Shown: in pieces, positions 17,481 through 52,694 of the stretch
How positions within the stretch are numbered: the stretch's first letter is position 1
Layout of the letters: every line of letters starts with the position of its first letter
Origin: an uncultured Clostridium sp.
GTDB lineage: Bacteria > Bacillota > Clostridia > TANB77 > CAG-508
Direction: 5' to 3'
NCBI GenBank assembly: GCA_902496295.1
Contig: CABVAF010000002.1
Coordinates: 67,503-131,502 of the forward strand
DNA: 64,000 nt
Made by a program: the position numbers and the translations under genes
Notes under the pieces: model-generated
What the model was told of the DNA's origin: nothing
The model's input: only the letters and a program-made list of their open reading frames with translations
The model's database searches: none

Positions 17481-17524
17481 AAAAAAAGCAGTGAAAAGAT
17501 TTTAAAATCTTTTCACTGCTTTTT
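17481..17524. terminator. Bidirectional terminator
   Basis: Perfect 16-bp arms GCAGTGAAAAGATTTT/AAAATCTTTTCACTGC flanked by A8 and T5. Sits between convergent genes. Confidence 0.8.
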
Positions 17525-17533
17525 AGGGTTAGC

Positions 17534-17848
17534 TCATTTCCTCAATTCTCTGCGTATTTTTTCGGCCATGCCGACGTCGTTGAAAGTAATTCGAATGTTT
17601 TTCCCACTAGCTTTTACCTGCGCACCACACTTCTCGAACGTTTCTTGCATATACTGCTTTAACTCTTTCATATAGATTTGTGCCAACGCATCGTTCTGCT
17701 CCTGAAGCTGGAATTCGATAACTCTTCCTCTGCTTGGTTCCACTAATTTGAGTGGAACCTTTCCCATTTTTCTTCTCCGATACGAGTTTTGACGTGCCCG
17801 CTCTGCTCCTCTACGGAATCCCTCAGAAAACGAAGCTAAAATTCCCAT
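17534..17848 (-). CDS. Orphan 104-aa protein of foreign composition, Arg-rich N-terminus
   Basis: AGGAGG SD 7 nt before the ATG. About 42-45% G+C in hand-counted blocks versus ~27% in neighbouring pepT. C/G-ending codons. No family recognised. Confidence 0.6.
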   Translation of the reverse strand: MGILASFSEGFRRGAERARQNSYRRRKMGKVPLKLVEPSRGRVIEFQLQEQNDALAQIYMKELKQYMQETFEKCGAQVKASGKNIRITFNDVGMAEKIRRELRK

Positions 17849-31899: not shown

Positions 31900-31951
31900 G
31901 ACCTGTCCCCAATTTCTGTATTTCAGAAAAAATGACCTGTCCCTAATTTCT
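31900..31951. repeat. 18-bp direct repeat straddling the stop codon of the giant gene
   Basis: GACCTGTCCCCAATTTCT (31900-31917) and GACCTGTCCCTAATTTCT (31934-31951): 17/18 identical, 34 bp apart. Confidence 0.6.
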
Positions 31952-34900: not shown

Positions 34901-37900
34901 AAATGTAACAGTTGGAGGAGTTGAATCTATTATAAAATTAATTATTGTGCTATGGTCAAACTCATCTGTTGCCTTAATTGTATACTCTCCATCTTCTGTT
35001 ATTTCGTCACCTTCTGTATATGGAACTTTTTCTCCATCTTTTGTAAGCTCAACTTCTGTATCTGTAGCATCTTCTATTATAGGAGTTGCTTTATCATAAG
35101 TTTTTCCTTCTTCTACTCCTTTAATTACTGGTGCTGTTTTATCTATCATTATTACATAAGGGTCTGATACTTCTCCTGTTCTTCCAACATTATTTACAGC
35201 TGCTGCATATATTGTATATATACCGTCTTTATTAAGTACAAATTCTCCCCCTATGTCTAAGTCTATCCATGAAACTTGGTTATTTAAACTATATTTATAT
35301 TTTCTAATTCCACTTGGACTTGAACTTCCTGTAATAGTTACAGTAGCATCTTCTCCTATATATACTCCATTTTCTGCATTACTATTAATTGTTGGTGCAG
35401 GTGGTATTTCGTTATCCAAGTAAAAACCTTCACTTCTTGTTATAGAAGTATTTCCAAGTTTATCTTTAGCTAGCGCCCATATGTACCATACTCCACTATC
35501 TGTGTCTTTTTCTACAGTTTCACTTTGTCTAAATGTTTCTGTAAATTCTCCTTCATCTGGAGTTTCTGTAGATTGGCTCCACATATAACGGAAGCTGCTT
35601 TCATCTAATTCTCCAGAATGTGTTACTGTAATTGTACTAGATTGAGCCCTTTTGTATAGTGTATTTCCATTTGGATTAAAATTAATTACAGGTGCTGCTT
35701 TAGTAATTGTTATTACATATTCTCCTGTGCTTTCTCCTTCTGTATCTAAATTATTTACTGCTCTTGCTATAATTCTATATGTTTTTTCTTCTGTAAGTTT
35801 AACTTTTTCTCCTTCAGTAACATCTATCCAATTTAGACCACCATCTAAACTATATTGATATTTCTTTATTCCACTTAATGCACTACTTCCACTAATAGAA
35901 AATTCTATATCTTGGTTAGTTGAAGTACCTGTTGGAACATCTGCACTAATTGTTGGTATAGTTGGCTTATCATTGTCTAAATAAAATGGATTACTCTTTT
36001 CTATTGTAGTGTTTCCTAATTCATCTTTTGCAATAACTACTAAATTATAATCATTTCCAGTTCCTTCGCTTATTGTAATTGTATCTCCTGTTGTAAATTC
36101 TGTTGCCCCAGAATTAAACAAACCTTCATATAAGTCTGTTGCATTACGTATCCATTTGTATTTTAAAGAAGTTTCATCTAAGTCACTATTAGCATCTATA
36201 ACTGTTACTTTCGTACTTTGAGATTTTCTGTATGTAGTATCTCCATTTGGAGCAAATGAAATAACTGGTCCAGTGCTATCTATTGTAAAATGAATTATTG
36301 TTTCATTTCCTAATTCATCTTCTACCTTTAATGTATATTCTCCATCTTCTGTAATTGGATCTCCTTTTCCATCTTTTATAGGATAATCTTTTTCTGGTTC
36401 ATCATCTTTTTGAATTGTTGCAACTACTTCTGTTTCATCTTCTACTGTTGGATTTGCTTCTCGATATGTTTCTCCTTCTTCTACTCCTCCTACTTTTGGA
36501 GCATCTTTATCTATTTTTATAATATATGTCGCGCTTTCAGCTCCTGTTAAACCAACATTGCTGACTGCTCTTGCTTTTATTTGGTAAGTACCACTTTTAC
36601 TAATTTCAATAGTTCCATTTACATCATTCCATGTAGTTCCATTATTTAAACTATACTGATATTTGGCAATTCCACTTAATGCTGTTGAACCATCTATAGT
36701 TATAATTGCATTATCTTTTGTATAAACATTATTTGCTGCATTACTTGTTATTGTTGGAGCTGTTGGTGGAGTATTGTCTAAATAAAATGCTTCTGTTCTT
36801 TTATATGTGGCATTTCCTTGTAAGTCTTTAGCCACAACCCATAGATACCAGTTATTTCCTGTGTCTGTACTATTAGAAACTACAGAATTATTTGTGTAAT
36901 AACTATCAAATTCACTATCTATTGGCTGAGATGTACTTTGTGTCCAAACATATCTTAAAGTAGAATTATTAACTCCACTTGAATCTGTAACCGTTACTTT
37001 TGTTCCCTGCACTCTTTGATATGTAGTATTTCCATTTGTCTCAAATGTTATAGTAGGACCTGCATTATCTGCATCTTTTGTAAATGCTTTTATACAAATA
37101 CTTGGGTTTTCTACTCCTCCTATACCTAATGTAGTAATATCTTGCCATGTACTATCTGCCCCTGTAGCAGAAATAAAACCTTCATTTGCGTTTGCAGTAG
37201 CTGTGTCCCATTTAGTACTTTCTGCAACTTTTGCCTCTAATGGTAATCTTGCTTGAGAACCATCTGTTGAAGAATACTTTACTATAACTGCAAATTGACT
37301 ATTTGTAAGAGTTATTGGATTTGTAATTTTTATTGTTTTATATTCTTCTTGTAGAACCAACCCACTAGCAACTTGAGTTGCTCCTGTTAAACTTAAAGTT
37401 CCTGTTGGATTAACATATACATCTACTGTTGTATTACCAACACTATGAACAGAAACCTCGCTTAAATACTCTGCTGCACTATCTTTTCTTGTAAATACAT
37501 TTGCTGCATATACAGATGTAAGTGGAACTTCATTTCCATTTAATCCAACATTTATATTAGAACCCAAAGTATCATATTGATAAATATTTTTATAATCTCT
37601 ATCTGATACTAAAACTGTACCAGTATTTTCTTTTTCTATCATAACATCTTCATATGAAATATAATAATAGCCTCCATTAAATCCTGTTCCATATGAATTA
37701 AGTACAAGCCATGCTCCATCTTTAGTTGGCCTATGAGATGCATTAAAGTTATCTTTTGAATAATTATCATCCCATCCAACTAATGTTACTAAATGGTCTG
37801 GTGTAATAGATGTATCATCACAATAATATGCTGTTGCAAGTATTGGAGATACATTATTAAAGAATTGTGTTTGGCTTGAGTTTGTATTTGCACTTACACC

Positions 37901-38743
37901 ACCATATGCAATAATATGTTCTTTTATTTGTTGTCTAATATTGTTTACATCTGCATCTCCAAGTGTATTTCCATCTCCATCCTTATATGTTGTTACTCCT
38001 CCTGAAACTTCTTTTATAATACTTGGAAATCTTATGTAATTTTCTAAATGTTGTCCTGCTTGTTTATCTATTTCAGATAAGTTAATTAGTGCTTCTGAGT
38101 TAACAAATGGCATATCAGTCTCTAAAACTGGTCCTCTACCACTTGCCATATAGCTCATTCCTAAATAACTATTTCCTCCACTTCCTACTTCTCTATTATA
38201 TCCATTTGGGTTTGTCCCATCTAAAAATGTTTTAGCTGTAGCATATTCCATATGTCTTATAGAAAATATAGGAGATGTATAACTTCTAGTTAAGCTAATA
38301 TTTGTTTCCACTTCACTAATTAATGGGAATGTCCAACAAGTTTGTGTATCTAATTGATTTTTTACTGTTATGTCTATATAATCCCTTAAATCATATTTAG
38401 AATTACTTACAGCTAAAGCTACTGCATTAAAAGTTCTTCTATCTAATGAAAAGGCTTCATTCAATTTATTTTCTTCACTAGAAAGTGGATAATATGAAGC
38501 ATAATAAGGACTTGGCTCAACTTCTGCATTTCTTTCTTCTTCTGGTAGTTCAAGCCACCTTTTATAATCTTCTGAAAACTCTTTAACATCCACTGTATAG
38601 TTTAATTCATTATTACTTTCATCACTGTCTTCCTGCTCGTTTGCTCCATCAAGAGCAAATGCTCGCATTGGAAAACCACTTGTAATAATTAAAAATAAAA
38701 TTATAAAAATAATTTTTAAAATATAGCTTTTGTTTCTCCCCAT
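31943..38743 (-). CDS. Giant cell-wall-anchored papain-like (C1) cysteine protease with tandem Ig-like repeat modules
   Basis: Signal peptide. C1 triad context QTCWTF (Cys), DHLVTLVGWDD (His) and LNSYGTGFNGGYYYISY (Asn). 8 modules ending (Y/N)LDN..P, 7 KYQYSL..G..W modules and 3 GVEEG.TY modules. C-terminal IPQTG sorting motif plus TM plus basic tail. Confidence 0.8.
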   Translation of the reverse strand: MGRNKSYILKIIFIILFLIITSGFPMRAFALDGANEQEDSDESNNELNYTVDVKEFSEDYKRWLELPEEERNAEVEPSPYYASYYPLSSEENKLNEAFSLDRRTFNAVALAVSNSKYDLRDYIDITVKNQLDTQTCWTFPLISEVETNISLTRSYTSPIFSIRHMEYATAKTFLDGTNPNGYNREVGSGGNSYLGMSYMASGRGPVLETDMPFVNSEALINLSEIDKQAGQHLENYIRFPSIIKEVSGGVTTYKDGDGNTLGDADVNNIRQQIKEHIIAYGGVSANTNSSQTQFFNNVSPILATAYYCDDTSITPDHLVTLVGWDDNYSKDNFNASHRPTKDGAWLVLNSYGTGFNGGYYYISYEDVMIEKENTGTVLVSDRDYKNIYQYDTLGSNINVGLNGNEVPLTSVYAANVFTRKDSAAEYLSEVSVHSVGNTTVDVYVNPTGTLSLTGATQVASGLVLQEEYKTIKITNPITLTNSQFAVIVKYSSTDGSQARLPLEAKVAESTKWDTATANANEGFISATGADSTWQDITTLGIGGVENPSICIKAFTKDADNAGPTITFETNGNTTYQRVQGTKVTVTDSSGVNNSTLRYVWTQSTSQPIDSEFDSYYTNNSVVSNSTDTGNNWYLWVVAKDLQGNATYKRTEAFYLDNTPPTAPTITSNAANNVYTKDNAIITIDGSTALSGIAKYQYSLNNGTTWNDVNGTIEISKSGTYQIKARAVSNVGLTGAESATYIIKIDKDAPKVGGVEEGETYREANPTVEDETEVVATIQKDDEPEKDYPIKDGKGDPITEDGEYTLKVEDELGNETIIHFTIDSTGPVISFAPNGDTTYRKSQSTKVTVIDANSDLDETSLKYKWIRNATDLYEGLFNSGATEFTTGDTITISEGTGNDYNLVVIAKDELGNTTIEKSNPFYLDNDKPTIPTISADVPTGTSTNQDIEFSISGSSALSGIKKYQYSLDGGLNWIDVTEGEKVKLTEEKTYRIIARAVNNLDTEGESTGEYVITITKAAPVINFNPNGNTLYKRAQSSTITVTHSGELDESSFRYMWSQSTETPDEGEFTETFRQSETVEKDTDSGVWYIWALAKDKLGNTSITRSEGFYLDNEIPPAPTINSNAENGVYIGEDATVTITGSSSPSGIRKYKYSLNNQVSWIDLDIGGEFVLNKDGIYTIYAAAVNNVGRTGEVSDPYVIMIDKTAPVIKGVEEGKTYDKATPIIEDATDTEVELTKDGEKVPYTEGDEITEDGEYTIKATDEFDHSTIINFIIDSTPPTVTFNPNGNTTWAKTQSTIVTVTDERGLDESSLRYKWTQSVQVLTEDTFLPDSKTFKNGDSISIDGVSGNNWYLWVYAKDLQGNMALVKTTSFYLDNGIPPAPNINASVENGGKSSTEVTFDISGSSSLSGIAKYQYSLNGGSTWTDVNLGETVTLDTTGVYTIIARAVNNVGTAGEVTKEAYIITVDKEGPTITFTPSGNATFAKVQSTSVKVESVVGIASDGLKYLWSQKADGVTTGEFLQSFNNNQTITKNTGSGMWYLWVYAVDSAGANKMARSEGFNLDNEIPNAPTISSNTDAGSVISESLEFTLSGSTSPSGIAKYQYSLDNGGSWNDASQDGKVIVEKSGRYQIKARAVNNVGTIGRVSDTAFEVTIDKSPLNVTITPNENSTYAKSQSTKVSIDTNNEIEIARYLWSQKETGVGQGEIVNNFENNEDITKDTESGPWYLWVYVEDNIGKQVLQRSGAFYLDNEIPEAPIVTKDVDTENDLVNVDISGSSSPSGIAKYQYSLDNGKTWNDLAKGETLVLDEIGDYEFLARAVNNVGTEGKTTDMEIIEVVTRIPLIQFIPDGNDKYENEQSTRVRVRSSIGIDEDSLYYLWTTESEGITEENITEKLTNNDTLTKDEESGIWYLWVIAKNVDNEVKIERSEGFYLDNDDPIIDGVEEGKTYEEIKAVIMDKTSEVTIEVLKDGRKYAYSTVNDQDTSLDIYEEEMAFMEQITFKQSGVYQINVEDEAGNTANVSFVVQSKEKDTTGPTATFTPNGNKKYEKVQETEVKVEDPSGVDEDSLLYIWTDSEEPPEKDEFVEKFKNGDTIINDEETGKLYLWIYAKDKLGNESIIRSEAFYLDNSKPNPPTITPSVDNGDTTDEDVVIKVEGDPTESDIEHEYSTDGGKTWHKVEDGKVVISSEGTTTIIFRTVNEVGTVSDTTEPFTFTIKKETTVVITNNTVDNTVTKKPIPQTGLSNIILILISILGVSAVIIAIRYYKIRN

Positions 38744-40513: not shown

Positions 40514-42025
40514 TTATTTTAAGTATAAAGCTATTCTATAAGAATACTCCCTTTCTTTACTCTCTAATGTTCTTTTAGCTATATAATCTGTACTTCCTAA
40601 ATTATAATATTGTCCACCTCTTATTACATAACTTTCATTTGCTTTTTCTACAGTCCATTCATAATTGTTTCCTGCCATATCATAAATATTGTTTGTCACC
40701 CAGCTTCCACTATATCCTGTTGTTTTAGGTTTATTAGACATTTGTGTTATATTAATATCTGTAGCACTTTTAGTAGTAAGCCATGCTAATTTTAAATCAT
40801 CATCAATAATACTTTTATTGCTAACAGACATTATATTATAACTATTATAATTATTTTTAGCTATCGGCCAACCTCCTTCTTCTGGTATATCTATATTTTC
40901 CTTTTGTAATGCATATACGGTAATATCTATAGTTGCTTCTTTATCCTGCATAGTATTATTAATATTTGTTTTTATTTCTGGAACATTCCAATTATACCAT
41001 TCTCCTTCATTATCTAAGCATTCTTCTGGCAACTCTTTTGAGTTAACAAAATCACTTTTATTTTTTATAATATTATCTGGGTCATTTATTTCATACTCTA
41101 ATCTTATATATGCAGCATCACTACCTTCATCTAAACGAGTACTTAATGCAAAACTAGAACTACTTTCATATGATGGCACTATAAATTCATTATTTGATGC
41201 ATACAAAAATATACTTATAGTACCCAATTTCCCAACTTTGAATATATCTAACAGGCTACTATAACCTGTTTTTACTATTGGCAATCTGTTTTCTGTTTCT
41301 TTGCTTGTTGTAATGTTGTTATTATCTTTAACAACATAGTTAGCATAATTTCCATATTGTGAACTATCTTTAATATTAAAATTACTTGAAATAAAGTTTA
41401 CCACAGAGTCCCACTGTTTGCCATGTATTAATGTTGAGCTTACAGAAGAAGTATTGTACATATTCTTTGAAGAATTAATTGCCTCGTCTAAGCTAACTTG
41501 TGATGTTTCTTTTCCTTGCTTTACAACTGTTTCTCTATTTTCTACTCCTGTTTCATATCTTCCAACATAAAATCCACCATATTTTTCTATACTAGCTTCT
41601 ATACTTTGACTTTCAGCTGTCATTTCTTCGTCTATATCTTCTGAATATGTTAATCCAGATTCATCAAAATCTGTTGTTCCGTAGCTTTCTACAGGTATCC
41701 ACACAAATTGATTACCCTTTAGACTACTAGCTACTTCATGTGAATCTCCCTTATTATAGTCTTCTTCATTATCTGATATAATAAGCCCTGTCTCTTTGTC
41801 TCCTCCAACATAATAAAATCCATCTGGAATAATTACTCCATCTACAGTATTATTGTCTCCTGAATTTCCATTAAGCATGCTATCTAATTCATTATATAGT
41901 TCATTTAGTCTTTGTTGTTCATCTATTATAGCAGCGTCCATTTTATTTGAAGCCTCTTGAGCCTTTTTTATAATTCCGTTGTCATTAAATATTGCATTTA
42001 TTGTTACACTTGCTAAAATAAGCAA
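40514..42025 (-). CDS. Pilin-helix / FGE-sulfatase (SUMF1-like) domain protein lacking a prepilin leader, possibly 5'-truncated
   Basis: The N-terminus (NFF)ALVVTIIVLLILASVTINAIFNDNGIIKKAQEA is homologous to the pilA helices. FGE motifs FVWIPV, GGFYVGRYE, NIYDMAGNNYEWT and IRGGQYY. There is no ATG or SD; the frame is closed 17 codons upstream, inside the fabI terminator. Confidence 0.55.
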   Translation of the reverse strand: MLILASVTINAIFNDNGIIKKAQEASNKMDAAIIDEQQRLNELYNELDSMLNGNSGDNNTVDGVIIPDGFYYVGGDKETGLIISDNEEDYNKGDSHEVASSLKGNQFVWIPVESYGTTDFDESGLTYSEDIDEEMTAESQSIEASIEKYGGFYVGRYETGVENRETVVKQGKETSQVSLDEAINSSKNMYNTSSVSSTLIHGKQWDSVVNFISSNFNIKDSSQYGNYANYVVKDNNNITTSKETENRLPIVKTGYSSLLDIFKVGKLGTISIFLYASNNEFIVPSYESSSSFALSTRLDEGSDAAYIRLEYEINDPDNIIKNKSDFVNSKELPEECLDNEGEWYNWNVPEIKTNINNTMQDKEATIDITVYALQKENIDIPEEGGWPIAKNNYNSYNIMSVSNKSIIDDDLKLAWLTTKSATDINITQMSNKPKTTGYSGSWVTNNIYDMAGNNYEWTVEKANESYVIRGGQYYNLGSTDYIAKRTLESKEREYSYRIALYLK

Positions 42026-42111: not shown

Positions 42112-42882
42112 TTATACTCCGACAGTTGAAAAACCATTATCTACATGTATTACTTCACCAGTAATTGCAGATGACATATCACTAAACAAGAATGATGCCG
42201 TATCTCCAACTTGTTTTGTTGTTACATTTTGATGTAATGGTGCTCTTTCTTCTACTACATCAAGTATAGTTCCAAAATCTTTTATTCCTTTTGCAGACAA
42301 TGTTTTTATAGGCCCTGCGGAAATAGCATTTATACGCATTTTGTCTTTTCCTAAGTCTCTTGCTAAATAACGAATACTTGCTTCTAAAGCAGCTTTTGCA
42401 ACTCCCATAACATTATATCCTTCTACAGACTTCTCTGAACCCCAATATGTTAATGCTACTATGCTTGCACCTTCTCCTAACATATCAAGTTCTTTAGCTA
42501 TTCTAGAAATTGCAACTAATGAATATGCGCTTATATCTCCTGCATGATTAAATCCATCTCTTGATGTTTTTATAAAGTCATTTCTTAAATCTTCTGTATT
42601 TGCATGTGCAATACTATGTAATATACCATCAACTTTTCCAACTTCTTGTTTTATTTGCCCAAAACATTTTCTTATATCTTCGTCTGTTGCAACATCACAT
42701 GGGTATGATTTAGCACCTGGTATTTCAGAAATTAAATCTAATATTTTATCTTCCTTTTCTGTTGGATGATGTGTAAATATTACCTTTGCACCATTTTCAT
42801 AAGCAGACATTGCTGCTCCCCATGCAATACTCCATTTGTTCCTAATTCCCATAATTAATATTGTTTTTCCTTCTAATAACAT
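42112..42882 (-). CDS. fabI: Enoyl-ACP reductase FabI
   Basis: SDR fold with GIRNKWSIAWG and Y..MGVAKAALE catalytic Tyr/Lys spacing. 256 aa. Confidence 0.85.
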   Translation of the reverse strand: MLLEGKTILIMGIRNKWSIAWGAAMSAYENGAKVIFTHHPTEKEDKILDLISEIPGAKSYPCDVATDEDIRKCFGQIKQEVGKVDGILHSIAHANTEDLRNDFIKTSRDGFNHAGDISAYSLVAISRIAKELDMLGEGASIVALTYWGSEKSVEGYNVMGVAKAALEASIRYLARDLGKDKMRINAISAGPIKTLSAKGIKDFGTILDVVEERAPLHQNVTTKQVGDTASFLFSDMSSAITGEVIHVDNGFSTVGV

Positions 42883-43003
42883 CTTTTATCCACCTTTCTA
42901 ATTTTTAATTAAAATTTTTTTATTTTTTCAGATTCTTATTACTTTTAATTTTTATAATTTGTTTTTAACTTTTCCATTCTTAAGTTCTTTACTATATTCT
43001 ATT

Positions 43004-43807
43004 TTATAAGTCTCTACCTATTTTTCTATATTTTTCATATCTATTTTCTATTAAATCTTCTGGATTTTCTTTTAATAGTTTCTTTAAATCCTTTTTTATA
43101 GTATCTTTCAAGCTTTCTGCTACTTTTTCCAAATCTTCTTGTGCTCCATTTTCTGGTTCTTTTACAATTTCGTCTATTATATTTAATTTTTTCAAATCAT
43201 ATGAAGTAATTTTCATATGTTCTGCTGCTTCCTTGCTCTTACTAGAATCTTTATATAAAATACTTGCAAATCCTTCTGGTGAAAGTATACTATATACCGC
43301 GTTTTCAAGCATTATTATTTTATCTGAAACGCATATAGCAAGTGCACCTCCACTTGAGCCTTCTCCAATTACCACTGCAATAATTGGAACTTTTAGTCTA
43401 GACATTTCCATCATACTTCTAGCTATTGCTTCTCCTTGTCCTCTTTCTTCTGCTCCCATTCCAGGATAAGCTCCTGGTGTATCTATAAAAGTTATTATTG
43501 GTCTACCAAATTTTTCTGCTTGTTTCATTAGTCTTAAAGCCTTTCTATAGCCTTCTGGCTCTGGCATTCCAAAGTTTCTTTCCATATTTTCTTTTGTAGT
43601 TTTTCCTTTTTGCTCTCCTATAACTGTTACTGGCATTCCATCTAAATATGCAATACCTCCAACAATAGACTTATCGTCTCCATATAGTCTATCTCCATGT
43701 AGTTCCATAAACTCATCAAAAATATATTTTATATAGTCTAATGACTTTGGTCTATCTGCTTTTCTTGCAAGTAGCACTCTATCCCATGCACTTATACTAT
43801 TTGCCAT
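43004..43807 (-). CDS. accA: Acetyl-CoA carboxylase carboxyltransferase alpha subunit
   Basis: [15 protein letters not shown] and [10 protein letters not shown] motifs. Confidence 0.9.
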
Positions 43808-43847
43808 TTTTATCTTCCTTTCATAAGAAATTTACTTGACTTTATTC

Positions 43848-44705
43848 TTATATTTTATCTTTTTTGTGAAATTTTAATATCTTGTATAAAGTTTCTTTCA
43901 TGTCTTTTCTTTCTACAATTTTATCTATAAACCCATGCTCTAATAAAAATTCTGCTCTTTGGAAACCTTCTGGAAGTTTTTGTTTTACAGTTTGTTCAAT
44001 TACTCTTGGTCCTGCAAAACCTATTAAAGCATTTGGCTCTGCTAAAATTATATCTCCTAAGCTTGCAAAACTTGCTGTAACTCCTCCAGTTGTTGGGTCT
44101 GTTAAAACAGATATATAAAGAAGACCAGCCTCATTTAATTTAGCTAATGCTTCTGATGTTTTAGCCATTTGCATAAGAGAAATTAATCCCTCTTGCATTC
44201 TAGCACCACCAGATACGCAAAATATTATAATAGGTAATTTCTTTTCTATGGCATCTTCTATAGCACATGTTATTTTTTCTCCAACAACACTTCCCATACT
44301 ACCCATCATAAAGTTTCCATCCATAACAGCTATTACAACATCTTCTCCATTTATTTTTCCGAAACCTGTTTTTACAGCCTCGTTTATTTGTGTTTTTTCT
44401 TTTAATGATTGTATTTTCTTTTCATAACCTTCAAATTTTAAAGGATTTTTTGTTGTCATATTTTCATTTGTTTCAACAAAAGTTCCCTCATCAATTATTT
44501 GATGTATTCTTCTTCTCGCAGATACTCTAAAATGTTTACCACAATTTGGACATACGCTTAAATTATTATGTACCTCTTCTTTGTACAAAATTTCTTTACA
44601 GCTATCACATTTTACCCATTTTCCAACAAGCATATCTGATGCTTTTACATTTTTTTCTGGTTCTTCATCTGACTTATTTATTTTTCTTATTTTATCTATA
44701 ACCAT
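43848..44705 (-). CDS. accD: Acetyl-CoA carboxylase carboxyltransferase beta subunit
   Basis: N-terminal zinc ribbon CDSC...CPNCG, then GGARMQEG. Confidence 0.9.
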
Positions 44706-44715
44706 GTTTTTCTCC

Positions 44716-46050
44716 TTAATTCTTTTCTATAAATGAAGTGTCATAATTATTATTTATAAAATCTTCATTTTCTAATATTTTGTATAAGAAGTCTATGTTC
44801 GTAGTTATTCCATCTACTATAAATTCTCCTAATGCACTTTTCATTTTTGCTATACATTCGTTTCTATCATTTCCGTGAACTATAACTTTTGCAATCATTG
44901 AATCATAGCACGCTGGAATTGTATAGTCCGCATAAATTGCAGTATCTACTCTTATTCCGTTTCCACCTGGTAAGTGTAATCCTGTAATTTTTCCGGGACA
45001 AGGCATAAAGTTTTTATCTGGATTCTCAGCGTTTACTCTACATTCAATTGCATGTCCTGTAAATATAATATCCTTTTGAGAATACTTTAGTTTTTCTCCC
45101 CCCGCTATTTTAATTTGTTCCTTTACTATATCTATTCCAGTTACAAATTCAGTTACTGGGTGCTCTACTTGAAGCCTTGTATTCATTTCCATAAAATAAT
45201 AATTTTTATTTTTGTCTACTAAAAATTCTATAGTTCCTGCATTACTGTATCCAACTTCTTTTACAGCTTTAACAACAGTTTCACCCATTTTCTTTCTTAA
45301 TTTTTCATCAATTGCCATTGATGGGCTTTCCTCTAAAACTTTCTGGTGCCTTCTTTGTACTGAGCAATCTCTTTCTCCTAAAGATACAGCATTTCCATGT
45401 TCATCTGCTAAGACTTGAATTTCAACATGTCTTGGATTTTCTATAAACTTTTCTATATAAATACTATCATCACTAAAAGAATTTTTAGCTTCTTGTTTAA
45501 CTAAATCATACTCTTTAATAAGTTCTTTTTCAGAATAAGCTACTCTTATTCCTTTTCCTCCTCCACCTGCTGATGCTTTTAAAATAACTGGATAACCAAT
45601 TTTTTCTGCAATTTTCATTGCTTCTGAGACACTATTTATTACACCTTCTGAGCCAGGAACAACTGGTACTCCTGCTTTTTTCATTGTCTCTTTCGCTTTA
45701 GACTTATTTCCCATAAGATCTATTAATTTATAAGAAGGTCCTATAAATTTTATTCCTATTTCGTCGCAAATTTTTGCAAAATGGCTATTTTCAGATAAGA
45801 ATCCAAACCCTGGATGTATGCTATCACAGCCCTTTAAACATGCTGCTTCTATAATGTTCTTTATATTTAAATAACTTTTGCTAGATTTTGCAGGTCCTAT
45901 ACATACTGCTTCGTCTGCAAGTTTTACATGCAAAGCGTCTTTATCTGCTTCTGAATATACAGCAACAGATTGTATTCCCATTTCTCTGCATGCTCTTATT
46001 ATTCTTACCGCTACCTCTCCTCTATTTGCAACTAAAACTTTTTTTAACAT
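44716..46050 (-). CDS. accC: Biotin carboxylase
   Basis: [20 protein letters not shown]-grasp GGGGKGIR and [14 protein letters not shown]. Confidence 0.95.
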
Positions 46051-46064
46051 ATTCCATTTTCTCC

Positions 46065-46093
46065 TTGTTATTAAGATTTATTTGTGCTAGAAT
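46065..46093 (+). promoter_or_regulatory. Promoter of the plus-strand orphan gene
   Basis: TTGTTA-17 nt-TAGAAT with TG at the extended -10 position. Overlaps the accC RBS region on the other strand. Confidence 0.55.
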
Positions 46094-46126
46094 AATAACT
46101 ACCAACTCTTGAAGGGAGTGTTTATA

Positions 46127-46459
46127 ATGAATGATGTTGCTTCCTACTACTTCGACTTGGGAAAGCAAGACGCTTTCAGGTTCAAAGGTCACGTCAAAGC
46201 AACTGTTGAAGCAGACAACTCTTGTTTCTACCGGCTCGGCGTGCTGAGCGAGAGATACAAGAATTGTCCCAAACGTTTAGCCCTCATAGAGGAGCTTTGT
46301 CGGGAGTTTTCGTTTTACGACGAGCTTCCAAACCATGTGGTCATTACTCTAAAATATGACTACAGCCATCGTCTCCTTAAAAGAATGATGGACAACTTGG
46401 GATATCATGTCCCTGCACGTCCTAATTTCTTAGGTTTTAACGCCTGGAGAATTTTCTAA
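46127..46459 (+). CDS. Orphan 110-aa protein of foreign composition, antisense within the fab/acc operon
   Basis: GGGAG SD 8 nt before ATG 46127 (the track start at 46109 is a TTG). 47-50% G+C in hand-counted blocks. C/G-ending codons. No family recognised. Confidence 0.6.
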   Translation: MNDVASYYFDLGKQDAFRFKGHVKATVEADNSCFYRLGVLSERYKNCPKRLALIEELCREFSFYDELPNHVVITLKYDYSHRLLKRMMDNLGYHVPARPNFLGFNAWRIF

Positions 46460-46477
46460 GTTCAACATTTTTTCACT

Positions 46478-46517
46478 TTCTGGGTGGCTCCTGCCACCCA
46501 GAATTCTTTTTATTTTT
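46478..46517 (+). terminator. Strong GC-rich intrinsic terminator of the orphan gene
   Basis: TTCTGGGTGGC-tcct-GCCACCCAGAA followed by TTCTTTTTATTTTT. Confidence 0.85.
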
Positions 46518-46557
46518 ATACTTTTATAGTTTGCGATTCTAACATCTTACTATTATC

Positions 46558-46980
46558 TTATACTATTGCAAAAGTTAACTCTCCTTTTGCTGCAACTTTT
46601 CCATCAACAGTCGCAATTGCTTCTCCAACGCCAATTGGACCTTTTTGCTTTATAATTTTTACTTCTAATTTTAAAACATCTCCTGGTAAAACTGGCTTCT
46701 TAAAACGTAATTTATCAATTCCACCAAATAATGCATTCTTACCTTTGTTTTCTTCCATAGAAAGAATTGCTACTGCTCCAGTTTGAGCTAATGATTCAAC
46801 TATAAGAACACCTGGCATAATTGGATTACCTGGAAAATGTCCTTCAAAATATGGCTCATTTATGCACACATTTTTATATGCTGTACAGCTTTTACCTGGA
46901 ATTAGTTCTTCTACCTTATCTATCATTAAAATAGGTGGTCTTTGTGGAATTATTTTCATAATTTCGTTTATATCTAACAT
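46558..46980 (-). CDS. fabZ: 3-hydroxyacyl-ACP dehydratase FabZ
   Basis: [19 protein letters not shown] hot-dog active-site motif. Confidence 0.9.
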
Positions 46981-46995
46981 TTATAATTCTCCTCT

Positions 46996-47490
46996 TTATT
47001 TTAATTTAAATAATACACTTCCGTATTCTACTAAGTCTTCATCATTATAGCATATTTCTGCTATTTCGCCATCTACATCACTTTCTATTTCGTTCATTAA
47101 TTTCATGGCTTCTATAATGCAAAGTACATCTCCTTTTTTTACTTTGTCTCCCACTTTAACAAATGGTTCTGCTGTTGGAGACGCTTTTCCATAAAAAGTT
47201 CCTACCATTGGAGATTTTACTGTTTTATAGTTTTCTTCATTTTTGCTATTGCTTTTTTCAGTAATTTCTTCTTTATTATTTAGATTATTATCTGTATTTT
47301 CAACTACATTTTTTTCCTTGCTTATATTTTGCATAGATGAATTTTCTACTGCGTCATAGTTTAATCCAGCATATACAATTGGACTTTTTCTCATTTTTAC
47401 TTTTGTTCCTTCTGGAAGTTCTATTTCAATTGAATCTAAGCTAGAATTTTCCATATCTTTCATTAAATTTTTTATTTCAGCGTAATCCAT
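46996..47490 (-). CDS. accB: Biotin carboxyl carrier protein
   Basis: C-terminal biotinyl domain with the EAMKLMNEI motif. Confidence 0.9.
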   Translation of the reverse strand: MDYAEIKNLMKDMENSSLDSIEIELPEGTKVKMRKSPIVYAGLNYDAVENSSMQNISKEKNVVENTDNNLNNKEEITEKSNSKNEENYKTVKSPMVGTFYGKASPTAEPFVKVGDKVKKGDVLCIIEAMKLMNEIESDVDGEIAEICYNDEDLVEYGSVLFKLK

Positions 47491-47510
47491 TTAAAAATTT
47501 CCTCCTAAAA

Positions 47511-48749
47511 TTAATCTTCATATTTTTTGAATATAATAGAGCTATTATGTCCGCCAAATCCTAAAGAGTTTGACATTACTACTTTTACATCTGCTTTTCT
47601 TCCTACATTTGGTACTATGTCTAAATCGCATTCTTCATCTTTTACCTTATATCCTATTGTTGCAGGAACAAATCCATCTTCAATTGCTTTTATTGATGCA
47701 ATTGCCTCTACTCCTCCTGCTGCTCCTAGTAAGTGCCCTGTATTTCCTTTTGTTGAACTTACCATTACAGTTTTTGCAGCTTCTCCTAAGGCTGTTTTTA
47801 TTGCCATTGTCTCACATTTATCATTTAAAGGTGTTGATGTACCATGTGCATTAATATATGTAATGTCTTTTGGCTCAATTCCCGCATCTTTTATAGCTGA
47901 AACCATAGCTCTAGCTCCACCTTCTCCTCCTGGAGCTGGTGATGTAATATGATATGCATCAGAACTTGCTCCATATCCAATCATTTCTGCATAAATTTTT
48001 GCTCCTCTTTTTTTAGCATGTTCTAATTCTTCTAGTATAATAATTCCTGCACCTTCGCCCATTACAAATCCGCTTCTTTCTTTATCAAAAGGAATACTTG
48101 CTCTTGTTGGGTCTGTTTCTTGTGTAAGTGCTTTTATGTTAGCAAATCCTGCTATACCTGTTGGAGTTATTGAGCCTTCTGTTCCACCGGCTAATACAGC
48201 ATCTTGATATCCGTGTCTTATCATTCTAAATGCCTCTCCAATTGAATGAGTAGCACTAGCACATGCTGTAACTGCACAATAAGATTCTCCTTTTATTCCT
48301 AAGTCTATTGCTACATTTCCGGCAGCCATATTACAAATTGCCATTGGTATGTACATAGGAGAAACTCTGTCTGGTCCTTTTTCTACTAAAGCTCTATTTT
48401 CTTTTTCTATTGTTCCAAGTCCTCCTATACCAGAACCTAATACAACTCCCATTCTTGTTAAATCTGTATTTTCTTCATTTATTCCGCTATCTTTAAAAGC
48501 TTCTCTTGAAGCTACTATAGCTAATTGTGTAAATCTGTCTAATCTTTTACAACTTCTTTTGTCAAAATAATCTTCTGGATTAAAATTCTTTACTTCCCCT
48601 GCCACATGAACTTTTTGGTCTGTTGTATCAAATGCTGTTATTTCAGCTATACCACATTTACCTTCCTTTAATCCATTCCAAAATTCCTCTGCATTATTTC
48701 CAATAGGTGTTATTGCACCTATACCTGTAACAACAACTCTTCTTTCCAT
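47511..48749 (-). CDS. fabF: 3-oxoacyl-ACP synthase II
   Basis: RVVVTGIGAITPIG, active-site TACASATH, and HGTSTP / GHLLGAAG motifs. Confidence 0.95.
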   Translation of the reverse strand: MERRVVVTGIGAITPIGNNAEEFWNGLKEGKCGIAEITAFDTTDQKVHVAGEVKNFNPEDYFDKRSCKRLDRFTQLAIVASREAFKDSGINEENTDLTRMGVVLGSGIGGLGTIEKENRALVEKGPDRVSPMYIPMAICNMAAGNVAIDLGIKGESYCAVTACASATHSIGEAFRMIRHGYQDAVLAGGTEGSITPTGIAGFANIKALTQETDPTRASIPFDKERSGFVMGEGAGIIILEELEHAKKRGAKIYAEMIGYGASSDAYHITSPAPGGEGGARAMVSAIKDAGIEPKDITYINAHGTSTPLNDKCETMAIKTALGEAAKTVMVSSTKGNTGHLLGAAGGVEAIASIKAIEDGFVPATIGYKVKDEECDLDIVPNVGRKADVKVVMSNSLGFGGHNSSIIFKKYED

Positions 48750-48827
48750 ACTTACTCCTTCTTAACTGAATAAATTATAATCTTATTTAAATATTACTTA
48801 ATAAATTTTATAAACATGTAATTTAAA

Positions 48828-49571
48828 TTACATAAGCATTCCGCCGTCTACATTTAAAACTTGACCTGTTATATATGTATTTTCCTCATTTCCTAAAAAG
48901 TATACTGCTTTTGCAACCTCTTCTGCTGTTCCCATTTTCTTAAGTGGTATTTGTGCATTTATACTTTCTTTAACGCTATCTGAAAGTACATCTGTCATAT
49001 CTGTTTTTATAAATCCTGGTGCTACACAGTTAGCTAAAATATTTCTACTTGCAAGTTCTTTAGCAACAGATTTTGTAAAACCTATAATTCCTGCTTTAGA
49101 AGCAGAATAATTTGCCTGACCAGCATTTCCACTTACTCCAACAACTGAAGATATATTTACAATTTTTCCATATTTCTGTTTCATCATATAAGGAATTACA
49201 TTTTTAGTAACATTGTATGTACCTTTTAAATTAACATTAATTACTTTATCAAAGTCTTCTTCCTTCATTCTCATAAGAAGTCCATCTTTTGTTATACCAG
49301 CATTATTTACAACTACATCAATATGTCCAAACTTTTCAATTGCTTTGTTTATCATGTTTTCACAAGATTCAAAACTTGTAACATCTGCTTGTATAAATAA
49401 AATTTCTATATTTGAATTTCCCTTAATTTTTTCTTCAAGTTCTTTTTCGTCTCCAATATTAGAAACATAGTTTATAACTAAGTTATATCCTTCACTTGCA
49501 AATTTTTCTGCTATTTTCTCTCCTATTCCTCTTGATCCACCTGTTATTAAAGCAACTTTATTATCACTCAT
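48828..49571 (-). CDS. fabG: 3-oxoacyl-ACP reductase
   Basis: TGGSRGIG, NNAG and YSASKAG SDR motifs. Confidence 0.9.
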   Translation of the reverse strand: MSDNKVALITGGSRGIGEKIAEKFASEGYNLVINYVSNIGDEKELEEKIKGNSNIEILFIQADVTSFESCENMINKAIEKFGHIDVVVNNAGITKDGLLMRMKEEDFDKVINVNLKGTYNVTKNVIPYMMKQKYGKIVNISSVVGVSGNAGQANYSASKAGIIGFTKSVAKELASRNILANCVAPGFIKTDMTDVLSDSVKESINAQIPLKKMGTAEEVAKAVYFLGNEENTYITGQVLNVDGGMLM

Positions 49572-49685
49572 TGTTTACCTCTCCTAATCTTTTTATAATT
49601 TCAAATTTTCTAATTAAAATTTCATATTATTTTTTTAAGCTTTTAAATTTTAGTCATTTACCTTTTTTATTTTAATGTTCACAAA

Positions 49686-50624
49686 TTATAATTCTGTTTT
49701 CAACTCTAAAAACTTATTTAAACTATCTAAATTGTTAAGAGTATATACTTCTGCATTTTCTAATTCTCTTTTTACAAATCCTGATAAAGCCTTTCCTGGT
49801 CCTATTTCCACATATGTATCAATTTCTCTATTATTCATTAATTCTATTGCTTTATCAAATCTTACTGGACTTATTATATGTTTTGCTAATATTTCTTTTA
49901 TATTGTCCTCTTTTGAATATATGCTTCCATCTATATTTTTTATAACATCTATTCTAGGCTCATTAAATTTTACATTTTCTAAACATTTTGCAAATTCTTC
50001 ACTTGCTTTTTGTAGTTTTATTGTGTGGAATGGTCCTCCTGTTTTTAGTTTTATTACTTTTTTAGCACCTTTTTCTTTAAATACTTCCATGCATTTTTCT
50101 ACTGCTTCTTCATTACCAGATATAACTATTTGTCCTGAATAATTATAATTTGCCGGAACCACAAAATTTCCTTCTTGCATTTCCTTTTTACAAATTTCTT
50201 CAATTACATTTGCATTTAAGCCAATTACAGCTGCCATAGCATAATTTTCATTTGGTACTAAATTCCCCATTAAATAGCCTCTTTGTTTTAAAAGTTTCAT
50301 TCCATCTTCGATGTTAAGAATTCCTGAATACATTAAAGCTACATACTCTCCCAAACTTAGACCTGTTGCTATTTCTGCTTTTATTCCACGTTTTTCTAGT
50401 ATTGCTAGTATAGATAAACTCATTGTAGCTATTGCTATTTGTGTATTTTCTGTTTTACTTAATTCTTCCATTGTAGATTCAAAACACAATTTACACATAT
50501 CAATATCTAAAATTTTGCTTACATTATTATAAATTTCTCTTGCCTCTTCATAATTATCGTAAATATCTTTTCCCATTCCTGCAACTTGTGAACCTTGCCC
50601 AGGAAACATAAATGCTAATTTCAT
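49686..50624 (-). CDS. fabD: Malonyl-CoA:ACP transacylase
   Basis: FMFPGQGSQ and GLSLGEY motifs. ATG at 50624 follows AAGGAG by 9 nt (the track start at 50633 is a TTG inside the RBS). Confidence 0.9.
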   Translation of the reverse strand: MKLAFMFPGQGSQVAGMGKDIYDNYEEAREIYNNVSKILDIDMCKLCFESTMEELSKTENTQIAIATMSLSILAILEKRGIKAEIATGLSLGEYVALMYSGILNIEDGMKLLKQRGYLMGNLVPNENYAMAAVIGLNANVIEEICKKEMQEGNFVVPANYNYSGQIVISGNEEAVEKCMEVFKEKGAKKVIKLKTGGPFHTIKLQKASEEFAKCLENVKFNEPRIDVIKNIDGSIYSKEDNIKEILAKHIISPVRFDKAIELMNNREIDTYVEIGPGKALSGFVKRELENAEVYTLNNLDSLNKFLELKTEL

Positions 50625-50661
50625 ATAGTTCAACTCCTTATATAATGTTTTTTATTACTTA

Positions 50662-51597
50662 TTATATTTCAAGTAAAATACTTGCTGTATTTAATCCTCC
50701 ACCATATCCTATTAAAATAACTTTATCTCCTTCTTTTAGCATTTTCTTTTCATACATTTGTGTTAGTGCAATTGGTATACTTGCACAAAACGTATTTCCA
50801 ACTTCAGCTATATTCATATATAATTTATCAATAGTTACATCTAATTTTGCTACCATTGATTTCATTATCTTAACATTTGATTGATGTGGAATTATATATT
50901 TTATATCTTCTAACTTCACATTGCTTTCTAATAATAATTCTTCAATATTTTTTACTGTTTCTGTTACTGCATATTTATATACTGCTTTTCCATCCATTTT
51001 TATTTTTTCATAGGTTTTATATGTTAATATTTCTCCATTTTTCCCGTCACTTTGTATATAAGAAGAATATATTTTATTATTTTTAGTTCTTTTTATTATC
51101 GTTGCACCTGCACCATCTGATAATATAATTTTTGTATTTATATCATTGTTATCAGTGCACTCTGATAGTGCGTCAACCCCAACTATTAAAGCTGTTTCTA
51201 CTTTTCTTGTGCCTATATACATTTTTGCTATATCAAATGCATTAATATAACCTGCACATCCTGCAAGTATATCTAAACATATGCACTTTTCTATATTAAG
51301 TTCTTTTTGTATGTAATATGAAATTCCTGGCATTAATGTATTTGTGGATGTTGTTGCTACTATAACTAATTCAATATCGTTTGCAGATATTTTAGAGTCT
51401 TCTATTGCCATTTTAGAAGCTTTTAATGCCATTTCACATATATTTTCATTTTCTTTATAATATCTCGTATTTATTCCCGTTCTTTTTAATATATATCCTT
51501 CTTCTACATTAAACTTTTCTTCTAACTCTTTATTTCCGATTTTTAATGCTGGCAGATATAGTCCATTTCCTATTATTTGTATGTTTTCCATATTCAC
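50662..51597 (-). CDS. fabH: 3-oxoacyl-ACP synthase III
   Basis: Active-site Cys context LAGCAGY, plus PHQSN and GGGLN motifs. Confidence 0.9.
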   Translation of the reverse strand: MNMENIQIIGNGLYLPALKIGNKELEEKFNVEEGYILKRTGINTRYYKENENICEMALKASKMAIEDSKISANDIELVIVATTSTNTLMPGISYYIQKELNIEKCICLDILAGCAGYINAFDIAKMYIGTRKVETALIVGVDALSECTDNNDINTKIILSDGAGATIIKRTKNNKIYSSYIQSDGKNGEILTYKTYEKIKMDGKAVYKYAVTETVKNIEELLLESNVKLEDIKYIIPHQSNVKIMKSMVAKLDVTIDKLYMNIAEVGNTFCASIPIALTQMYEKKMLKEGDKVILIGYGGGLNTASILLEI

Positions 51598-51681: not shown

Positions 51682-52269
51682 TTAAAATATTTTGGTATTA
51701 TCTTTTAAGCTTTTCTCCAATTTTTCTAAAATTTTAGATATAATTTCCTCTCTTTCAAACTCAGTATTAAAATCTTTTTTCAATGATGTTGCAATATTTA
51801 AAATTTCATTATTAAATTCTACCTGATTAACATTAAATCCAATTCCTACTAGTACATAACATACTTTTTCTTCTAAAGTAACACTTTGAGTTAAAATGCC
51901 ACAGATTTTTTTGCCATTTAGCATCACATCGTTTGGCATTTTTACTTCTAATTTATATCCATATAATTCATATATAGCCAAAACAATTGCCTTTGCTATT
52001 TCTACTGTAAGTCCTTCTAGATTTTCAGCATTGCAATTAGGATAAATAACAAATGACATTGTAATATTTTTCTCTCTTTCTGTAGACCAAGTCCTTCCTT
52101 TTGTACCTTTTCCTTTTATTTGATTGTCTGTAATTACCAACGTACCATTTTGGGCATGTTCCTCTGCTAGTTTTCGTACTATATCTTGTGTAGAATCAAT
52201 TTCACTATAATATATTACATTCTTTCCTAAAAACTTTGTATTTGAATTTTTTATTTTTTCTATATTCAT
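51682..52269 (-). CDS. birA: Biotin-protein ligase family protein (short, no HTH domain)
   Basis: GKGTKGRTW motif of BPL catalytic domains. ATG at 52269 is preceded by AGGGAGAAATA. About 195 aa, with no DNA-binding or obvious C-terminal domain. Confidence 0.65.
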   Translation of the reverse strand: MNIEKIKNSNTKFLGKNVIYYSEIDSTQDIVRKLAEEHAQNGTLVITDNQIKGKGTKGRTWSTEREKNITMSFVIYPNCNAENLEGLTVEIAKAIVLAIYELYGYKLEVKMPNDVMLNGKKICGILTQSVTLEEKVCYVLVGIGFNVNQVEFNNEILNIATSLKKDFNTEFEREEIISKILEKLEKSLKDNTKIF

Positions 52270-52448
52270 TATTTCTCCCTTTCTAAACTTGTAATATAAT
52301 ACCAAACTGTAATAATAAAATCAAATTTTATAATACTTGGTCAATTTTTCATTAATATGTAAAAAACTGTTTGAGTTTGTCTAATTTTGTGTTATAATAT
52401 TTATAAATTTTAACTAACTTATGAAAAATTGAAAGGAATGAAGATAAT

Positions 52449-52694
52449 ATGAATTTTAACAAATGCTGTCGTTGTGGCTGTTTTTATCTTAGTAATTCTC
52501 ATGTTTGCCCTAATTGCGAACAAAAAGATTTAAGTGATATTTCTACTTTAAAAAATTATTTTAACGAAAACGGACTACCAAATTCTATAGAAAGTCTTTC
52601 TAATTACACAGGTATTTCGCAAAGAAATGTAAATAGATTAATTAACGAAAATAAAGAATTAACTAATTTATATGGAAAAGATTTTAATTTATAA
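52449..52694 (+). CDS. Small zinc-ribbon plus HTH-like protein (YvyF/TIGR03826-like pattern)
   Basis: CCRCG...CPNC ribbon followed by SNYTGISQRNVNRLI. Family assignment is from memory only. Confidence 0.35.
   Translation: MNFNKCCRCGCFYLSNSHVCPNCEQKDLSDISTLKNYFNENGLPNSIESLSNYTGISQRNVNRLINENKELTNLYGKDFNL

Follow-up and report, generated by a model that had tools for sequence, protein, structure and literature searches.

A small protein gene nested antisense between fabZ and accC in the fatty-acid synthesis operon of uncultured gut Clostridia: a candidate noncontiguous operon

Why would a compact operon for an essential pathway hold, in the middle of its gene order, a gene that runs against it? 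The question is raised by a stretch of 64,000 nucleotides from an uncultured Clostridium sp. (assembly GCA_902496295.1, contig CABVAF010000002.1), here called the window; all coordinates given are window-based. Ten genes of type II fatty-acid synthesis (FASII) and acetyl-CoA carboxylase (ACC) lie on the minus strand at 42112..51597 in the order fabH-fabD-fabG-fabF-accB-fabZ-accC-accD-accA-fabI, and the spacer between fabZ and accC contains an open reading frame (ORF) on the plus strand at 46127..46459, referred to below as the nested gene. An earlier note on this DNA, made from the sequence alone, had described the ORF as a foreign-composition orphan and proposed that it was either a recent horizontal insertion or an assembly or engineering artefact. 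The analysis given here led to a different answer. The best explanation of the locus as a whole, held with moderate confidence, is that a protein gene under selection is nested in the gene order of a noncontiguous operon, that its expression is coupled to that of the operon, and that its folded mRNA is maintained.

The anatomy of the locus was established from an ORF map, Pfam and synteny. Pfam identified fabZ (46558..46980, minus strand, FabA), accC (44716..46050, minus strand, the biotin carboxylase gene, with Biotin_carb_N, CPSase_L_D2 and Biotin_carb_C) and fabI (42112-42882, minus strand); the other cluster genes, fabH (50662-51597, minus strand) among them, were assigned by synteny with orthologous loci that carry Pfam labels together with 79-97% protein identity, the window being compared with locus L001. 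From fabH to fabI the successive junctions measure 28, 114, 78, 20, 15, 507, 10, 40 and 121 nt, so that the ORF map agrees with the earlier description of ten co-oriented genes that are compact apart from the fabZ-accC spacer (46051-46557, 507 nt), the remaining junctions being 10-121 nt. The nested gene spans ATG to TAA, stands head-to-head with accC and tail-to-tail with fabZ, and encodes a 110-aa basic protein (pI 8.8) whose existence as a protein is indicated by its translation, homologues, substitution pattern and structure model. Its product is identical to the peptide quoted in the earlier note, where the span had been given approximately as 46060-46520. The same gene order, with a plus-strand ORF between fabZ and accC, was found in the window and in every orthologous locus. 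A transcript of the fab operon would cross the whole of 46051..46557 on the minus strand as a 507-nt untranslated stretch antisense to the nested gene. The account of a self-contained plus-strand gene lying antisense in an otherwise compact fab/acc operon is therefore anatomically correct.

The nested gene differs from its surroundings in composition. Its G+C content is 43.8%, where the window as a whole has 28.6% and the 2 kb on either side 31-33%, and the excess is entirely at third codon positions: G+C at first (GC1, 0.49) and second (GC2, 0.32) positions resembles that of the neighbour genes, while third-position G+C (GC3) reaches 0.50 and stays at 0.12-0.16 for the ten fab/acc genes. The GC3 of 43 long window ORFs was 0.151 ± 0.031, which places the nested gene at z = 11.3, and no 111-codon chunk taken from the 43 window genes exceeded 0.32. 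An index similar to the codon adaptation index (CAI) was 0.26 for the nested gene vs 0.71 ± 0.05 (z = -8.4). The deviation in G+C content and codon usage is thus statistically significant, and this part of the earlier claim stands; the "foreign" origin attached to it does not, since the orthologues share the high GC3 (0.23-0.54, with 0.09-0.26 in their own fabZ, accC and accB flanks). Synonymous third-position changes were polarised within the two clades of carriers that are described below, giving 26 changes from GC to AT and 36 from AT to GC. Neutral decay from a GC3 of ~0.45 to the host value of ~0.14 predicts a ratio of ~5:1 in favour of GC to AT, from which the observed counts differ (binomial p = 4e-13). 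As there is no excess of GC-to-AT changes among the synonymous sites, the G+C-ending codons are at an equilibrium of their own. High GC3 is a trait of the family and not a foreign relic, and the G+C-ending codons appear to be actively maintained.

The abrupt change in composition was also the sole support for a chimeric assembly or an engineered construct. The junction of the window is reproduced at 99-100% identity in another assembly (L022), and members of the family clusters were found on 81, 40 and 30 contigs; the family is present on more than 100 independently assembled contigs from many studies. The nested gene is also carried by OZ007016.1, a closed circular 1.57-Mb HiFi assembly. On these three grounds an assembly artefact is excluded, and the chimera or construct offered by the earlier note is left with a negligible probability.

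Homologues were sought in two ways. Ten clusters with 87-41% identity to the nested-gene product came out of a word-indexed search through 5.8 billion proteins, and a profile search run exhaustively over 1.84 billion representatives matched only 32 proteins at E <= 1e-3, from which it follows that the family is small. It comprises at least 32 clusters at 50% identity, so the word "orphan" used in the earlier note does not apply. Four motifs are invariant in the alignment: S-x-FYRLG, P-T/K-R-x-x-L-I-x-E-L-x-R-E-F, YSHRLLK and AWR. The ratio of nonsynonymous to synonymous substitution rates (dN/dS; codon-aware Nei-Gojobori) was 0.06-0.2 where dS was unsaturated, and the protein is therefore under purifying selection. 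The proportion of synonymous differences (pS) in the nested gene was 0.5-0.9, equal to or higher than that of fabZ, accC and accB in the same genome pairs, which means that no overlapping element constrains its synonymous sites; an overlapping sequence element within the ORF, considered as a candidate, was rejected for this lack of synonymous-site conservation.

The structure of the protein was modelled using AlphaFold2 (AF2) with 42 family sequences, giving a predicted local distance difference test score (pLDDT) of 89.3 and a predicted template modelling score (pTM) of 0.82. The predicted topology (H3-18, H27-31, H33-43, H48-61, E70-73, H81-91, E104-108) has four helices followed by a beta-alpha-beta unit, in which E70-73 leads to H81-91 with no helix in between. 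Foldseek with this model gave no significant match (best E = 0.29 in the PDB, template modelling score <= 0.39; best E = 0.095 in BFVD); a search made with an earlier AF2 model (pLDDT 64) could not be interpreted, and the model with pLDDT 89.3 was used instead. Pfam and NCBIfam scans of the protein gave no match at E <= 10, and a Pfam scan across 42 members gave no consistent family. The only match of the profile search in the PDB, RPN6 (E = 7e-4), covers a helical stretch alone and was judged spurious. The earlier statement that the protein belongs to no recognised family was thus borne out by both profile and structure searches; no source gives the family a name, and nothing relevant was found in the literature on this gene or on any antisense gene between fabZ and accC. 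The nested gene is a real gene for an uncharacterised small basic protein (family median pI 9.2), whose unnamed family occurs only in uncultured gut Clostridia of low G+C content.

The position of the gene is conserved too. Every homologue whose context was resolved, down to ~30% identity, lies between accC (head-to-head) and fabZ (tail-to-tail), these members being L001-L020, L026, L105 and L108. The carriers include eight GTDB species genomes, all labelled as uncultured Clostridia. When metagenomes were surveyed with the FabZ of the window as the probe, ~45 related lineages were found to have a compact fabZ-accC junction of 12-122 nt, and one close lineage, L023/L024, has an empty junction of 23-24 nt in an operon that is otherwise intact. 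Five genes place it in the window's own clade (identities of 92% for fabF, 80-83% for accB, 98-99% for fabZ, 93% for accC and 91-92% for accD). The nested gene is an addition to an ancestrally compact junction. The comparison of junctions that the earlier note had called for therefore gave a divided result: the site is empty in the ~45 lineages and in L023 and L024, and occupied in two deep clades and in distant members.

The two clades of carriers were defined by neighbor-joining (NJ) trees built on single proteins or pairs of proteins. Clade A contains the window and L022, L001/L009, L010 and L011; clade B contains L018, L026, L003, L016, L002/L015 and L012-14. Each was monophyletic in 89-100 of 100 bootstraps (accC, fabF, accB and fabF+accC), and the two together were monophyletic in none of 100, so the carrier clades are not sisters. 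FabZ alone tells another story. Its identity is 91% between clades A and B and 78-85% between clade A and the non-carriers nearest to it by accC, and the FabZ of the window is 89-92% identical to that of clade B or of L027/L028; the protein groups the insert-carrying lineages, a grouping that fabF, accB, accC and accD do not show. Such similarity would be expected if fabZ had been transferred along with the insert, or if the constraint on fabZ had changed. The trees would fit either a gene older than both clades with several losses or an ancient lateral spread of a segment containing fabZ and the ORF, and either history would predate the saturation of synonymous sites.

With the distribution in hand, a recent horizontal insertion (a moron-like cassette, a toxin or an anti-defence gene) can be weighed. 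It would account for the atypical composition, for a promoter and terminator of the gene's own, for the empty junction in a close lineage and for the patchy occurrence on the flanking-gene trees, where clades A and B were never sisters in 100 NJ bootstraps with accC, fabF or accB. The occupation of the same slot in two deep clades, at identities down to ~30% and with saturated dS, speaks against it, as do the purifying selection on the protein and the lack of directional decay from GC to AT. Links to mobile elements were equally lacking: a tblastn search of 50,697 phage and 72,556 plasmid records found nothing, PHROGs returned noise only, PADLOC assigned 0 families to the four members tested, and no mobility gene was present in the cluster according to the ORF map and Pfam (no systematic search was made for flanking direct repeats). 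A partner gene is lacking too, the 507-nt spacer having no room for a second, cognate one, and its solubility (grand average of hydropathy, GRAVY, -0.36) rules the protein out as a type I toxin peptide. Relatives largely share the ORF at a similar composition, in the same slot of two deep clades with a GC3 of 0.23-0.54, which is the finding that the earlier note itself had named as telling against its proposal. A recent insertion is thus very improbable; a lateral spread between the clades that was ancient, perhaps together with fabZ, is possible.

Several other observations were made on these junctions. In L027 (2921-3478, with fabZ on the plus strand) the fabZ-accC junction contains a 130-aa antisense ORF with its own Shine-Dalgarno sequence and terminator, and in L072 and L079 (2918-3348, with fabZ on the plus strand) it contains an 86-aa antisense ORF. 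Neither could be accepted as a member of the family (hhalign homology probability of ~1% or lower). Small antisense genes may have landed in this junction repeatedly, or these ORFs may be relatives that have diverged beyond recognition. In L025 (VOFC01000007.1) the FabZ is 96% identical to that of the window and the junction is empty as in L023 and L024, with fabF, accB, accC and accD at only 58-67%; either the contig would be chimeric or fabZ would have been transferred alone. On the family-bearing contig L108 (873-1662), accA is split into two ORFs of 131 and 100 aa; either the gene is frameshifted or a pseudogene, or the sequence is in error.

The window contains another small ORF that is rich in G+C, at 17534-17848 on the minus strand, between a methyltransferase gene and pepT. 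It encodes 104 aa, has a G+C content of 43.8% and a GC3 of 0.45, and is followed by a long hairpin terminator of its own at 17483-17524. It is a true orphan, with only identical copies among the 5.8 billion proteins, and its mRNA shows no excess of folding (synonymous-shuffle z = -0.7). The idea of a recent foreign orphan fits this ORF better than it fits the nested gene.

The signals for expression of the nested gene were assigned by consensus scans, and those that the earlier note had read from the sequence were all located. A sigma-A-type promoter lies at 46065..46093 on the plus strand, with the -35 hexamer TTGTTA at 46065-46070, a spacer of 17 nt and an extended -10 element (TGcTAGAAT, with the hexamer at 46088-46093). 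It is followed by a conserved 5' untranslated region (UTR) at 46094..46126, in which the Shine-Dalgarno sequence (SD) GGGAG occupies 46114-46118, 8 nt upstream of the ATG. The SD of accC, AAGGAGA, read from the minus strand at 46060..46066, sits in the -35 region of the nested gene, so that, as claimed before, the promoter overlaps the ribosome-binding site (RBS) of accC on the other strand. Downstream of the ORF an intrinsic terminator was found at 46478..46519 on the plus strand, consisting of a hairpin (46478-46503) with an 11-bp stem and 7 G-C pairs and then a T-run. In the ranking scan, which covered 1-60000, this hairpin was the richest in G+C of the terminator-like sites and all others had 5 G-C pairs or fewer, so its description as the most GC-rich terminator of the window holds for that range. 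The terminator is unidirectional: read on the minus strand, its hairpin precedes AAAGTGAAAAAA, which is no U-tract, and a U-tract follows the hairpin on the minus strand in none of the orthologues.

Promoter-like matches are no more frequent in this AT-rich DNA than in shuffled sequence, and the evidence for the promoter is therefore its conservation in orthologues and not the match itself. In 11 of 12 lineages the two start codons are separated by an accC-ORF spacer of 65-80 nt, and the 12 orthologous spacers have a mean identity of 71% despite the saturation of synonymous sites. Invariant in all 12 are CTTG, the extended -10 element TTT.TG.TA.A.T, the spacing of the two, the SD GGAGT and the ATG start. 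The invariant TCTCCTTG is at once the minus-strand SD of accC and the core of the plus-strand -35 element. Every orthologue also has a G+C-rich hairpin and T-run right after the stop codon, each of them its own and different from the others. On the opposite strand, the consensus scan found no promoter-like or terminator-like site on the minus strand of 46051-46557, and no terminator-like site was found on the minus strand from fabH through fabI.

Two smaller features of the promoter region were also considered. A small hairpin in the 5' UTR that pairs the SD recurs in orthologues with a strength no greater than in shuffles, and sequestration of the SD is a weak lead. The palindrome GTTATTA...TAATAAC around the promoter, considered as an operator, was rejected because inspection by eye found it in the window and not conserved in orthologues. 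The 23-nt empty junction of L023 (2921-2943) reads TGCTAGAAAGAGGAGAAAAGTAT on the fabZ-sense strand and, once the final nucleotide of the stop codon of fabZ is counted in, contains GTGCTAGAA, which is also the extended -10 region of the nested gene (window 46084-46092) on the opposite strand relative to fabZ; the sharing of this 9-mer may be chance.

The folding of the transcript was analysed next to its composition. The sense mRNA of the nested ORF has a predicted free energy of -100.8 kcal/mol (dinucleotide-shuffle z = -3.5 to -4.2), and the minus strand of 46051..46557 folds with z = -4.1. Across 14 orthologues the mean dinucleotide-shuffle z was ~-3.4 for the sense and -2.3 for the antisense strand, against -0.96 ± 1.05 for 21 equal-length chunks of fab/acc genes used as controls. 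The excess persisted under synonymous-codon permutation, which keeps the protein and the codon usage and changes only the arrangement of codons (sense-strand mean z of -3.46, range -1.1 to -5.7; control genes -0.60 ± 0.99), and a shuffle artefact of codon periodicity was rejected for this reason. It is greater on the sense than on the antisense strand (paired p = 0.0013), although t-tests of this kind overstate independence because orthologues share ancestry. No consensus RNA structure was found with RNAalifold on 13 orthologues, only 4 pairs at -0.73 kcal/mol being recovered, and the structures obtained for subgroups differ between the two clades. What the models indicate to be conserved is the degree of folding and not a particular fold, and the simplest reading of the high GC3 is that it supplies the material from which the folding of the mRNA is built.

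These results also bear on two explanations in which RNA takes the place of the protein. G+C-rich islands in AT-rich genomes are often non-coding RNAs, and a spurious ORF over a structured RNA would agree with a G+C island within a long intergenic gap and with strongly negative folding z-scores on both strands. It would not agree with GC1 and GC2 values that are gene-like and a deviation confined to GC3, with a dN/dS well below 1 at saturated synonymous sites, with a confident protein model, or with an RNAalifold consensus of -0.7 kcal/mol, that is, none; Rfam gave no match at the locus (E <= 1) and a single tRNA across the whole window. Such a non-coding origin has very little probability. 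A milder form, in which the protein is secondary and the sense transcript is the main effector, a long, stable and highly folded RNA that is antisense to the intercistronic region and tunes the processing or stability of accC-fabI RNA, draws on the conserved excess of folding on the sense strand with its significant strand asymmetry, on a transcript that by geometry is fully complementary to operon RNA, and on the strong terminator hairpin. Against it count the clear purifying selection on the protein and its confidently predicted fold, the conservation of the SD and the start codon, and again the lack of a conserved RNA structure or Rfam match. It is considered unlikely.

The reading of the locus as a coupled nested gene can now be set out. 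The spacer is without a minus-strand promoter or terminator and the gap between the start codons is filled by the promoter and UTR of the nested gene, for which reason accC-accD-accA-fabI would be transcribed from upstream of fabZ, through ~500 nt of the antisense strand of the nested gene. The convergent transcription that the earlier note had deduced from the position of the gene agrees with this geometry, which would force an overlap of sense and antisense RNA on the fab transcript. A nested promoter firing at the RBS of accC would send its polymerases head-on into those that approach accC, and its mRNA would be fully complementary to the intercistronic RNA of the operon. Collision and complementarity together would tie the output of the small protein reciprocally to that of the ACC/FabI half of the pathway, through transcriptional interference and possibly RNase III. 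Hyper-folding might stabilise the small mRNA, limit its translation, or limit its pairing with the essential antisense RNA of the operon. Finally, and this is the weakest step, the protein might act on fatty-acid synthesis, for instance as a regulator that binds nucleic acid or binds ACC or the acyl carrier protein (ACP). A role as a FASII-linked regulator is plausible from the position of the gene and because the cluster (42112-51597) contains no known FASII regulator; within it, the ORF map and Pfam showed neither fapR nor fabT, and no acpP.

A number of points weigh against this reading. Co-transcription of fabZ and accC, the transcription start sites and the interference are all inferred, and a weak or non-sigma-A promoter of accC inside the ORF could possibly escape a consensus scan. 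The gene is dispensable in L023 and L024. The two weakest and shortest members of the family lie elsewhere, P0039 after rlmH and P0037 convergent with a rimO-like gene, and the more distant members have a lower GC3 (0.21-0.32). The conservation of position could be inertia, the gene being locked inside a conserved operon. The z-scores of minimum free energy (MFE) are predictions, and the purpose of the folding is conjecture because there is no consensus RNA structure. No link of the protein to FASII was obtained from Pfam, NCBIfam or Foldseek (PDB, BFVD), nor was a helix-turn-helix (HTH) recognisable.

Several of these points are what would be expected of a passenger, that is, a real conserved protein unrelated to fatty-acid synthesis, which entered once or twice long ago and stays in place solely because the operon around it is not rearranged, the overlap being tolerated and not put to use. 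The protein has no tie by homology or fold to a FASII component or regulator, the operon of L023 and L024 is intact without the gene, the unrelated antisense ORFs of L027 and L072/L079 show that the site may tolerate insertions, and two distant members of the family are outside the junction. A passenger does not readily explain the conserved, tight interlock of its promoter with the RBS of accC, the properties of the mRNA that are maintained by selection, or a position kept across saturated synonymous divergence in two clades. It is possible, and the strongest of the rivals, but less probable than the coupled nested gene.

A bolder version of the coupled nested gene was also formulated. In it the protein would found a new, structurally unassigned family of small basic proteins that regulate fatty-acid or malonyl-CoA synthesis in uncultured gut Clostridia, the nested wiring would make the expression of the gene and of accCDA-fabI mutually exclusive, and the GC-ending codons would build a hyper-folded mRNA that insulates both RNAs from pairing and degradation. 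This version is speculative and rather doubtful. If true, this would be a way, so far undescribed, of meeting the cost that a nested gene imposes on an essential operon.

The findings are of interest in several respects. A gene that lies 11 standard deviations from the GC3 of the other window genes proved to be an old gene under selection, which is a caution for the detection of horizontal gene transfer from composition; an unusual composition can result from selection on the mRNA and need not be a scar of transfer. The locus is a computationally well-supported candidate for a noncontiguous operon inside FASII/ACC, an essential pathway and antibiotic target, in hosts that are abundant uncultured gut bacteria. 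An unnamed protein family with a confident and unmatched fold was delimited, and its genomic position yields a concrete functional hypothesis. The practical importance is moderate for now, as the transcriptional coupling is deduced from the locus.

Around the cluster, fabH is preceded by a gene of the biotin/lipoate ligase family (206 aa, without an HTH) at 51682-52305 on the minus strand, and an 81-aa plus-strand ORF at 52449-52694 gave no Pfam match. A 502-aa ORF directly downstream of fabI (40514-42025, minus strand) likewise gave no Pfam match, and beyond it is an ORF of 2266 aa at 31943-38743 on the minus strand.

The closest known arrangement is the noncontiguous operon (NcO), in which an operon contains a gene of counter orientation and the transcripts, because they overlap, are mutually repressive through transcriptional interference and RNase III (PMC11034616). 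An example from Staphylococcus aureus is menE-menC-MW1733-ytkD-MW1731 (Saenz-Lahoya et al. 2019; atlas in PMC11034616). Like these, the fab/acc locus has a gene in the opposite direction with its own promoter and terminator, flanked by co-directional genes of one pathway, and a geometry in which the transcripts should overlap in full and repress one another. It takes transcript evidence to define an NcO, and computation does not predict one (PMC11034616); the fab/acc locus has the gene order of an NcO, and in contrast to the S. aureus cases its co-transcription and repression are inferred. It differs from them further in that the host operon is the FASII/ACC operon of uncultured Clostridia, in that the nested promoter lies over the RBS of the downstream gene, and in the selectively maintained, G+C-rich and hyper-folded mRNA of the nested gene. 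Excludons (Listeria and others; Sesto et al. 2013, cited in PMC11034616 and PMC7154746) are similar in having divergent or convergent neighbours with overlapping transcripts, where expression of one suppresses the other; in an excludon it is the long UTRs of adjacent genes that overlap, whereas here a whole gene is nested in an operon.

Compared with known regulators of fatty-acid synthesis, the nested gene resembles those of FapR and the MarR-type FabT in encoding a small protein in or beside a fab cluster, and the fab cluster of the window has no FapR or FabT gene, which leaves the role of local regulator vacant. The nested protein differs in having no similarity to them in sequence or fold and no recognisable HTH or winged helix, and their genes are co-oriented first genes of operons and not antisense inserts. 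The YqhY protein of B. subtilis, a member of the Asp23 family encoded in the accB-accC-yqhY operon, is a small ACC-associated regulator; it shares with the nested protein a genetic tie to accB/accC, but the nested gene has the opposite orientation and no homology. Like horizontally acquired ORFans and morons of atypical G+C, the nested gene has unusual codon usage, carries expression signals of its own and is polymorphic in presence and absence, and it differs from them in being old, conserved in position, at compositional equilibrium and without a link to mobile elements. We know of no report of a G+C-rich, hyper-folded mRNA for the nested gene of an NcO. The architecture is of a known kind, and the protein family is new.

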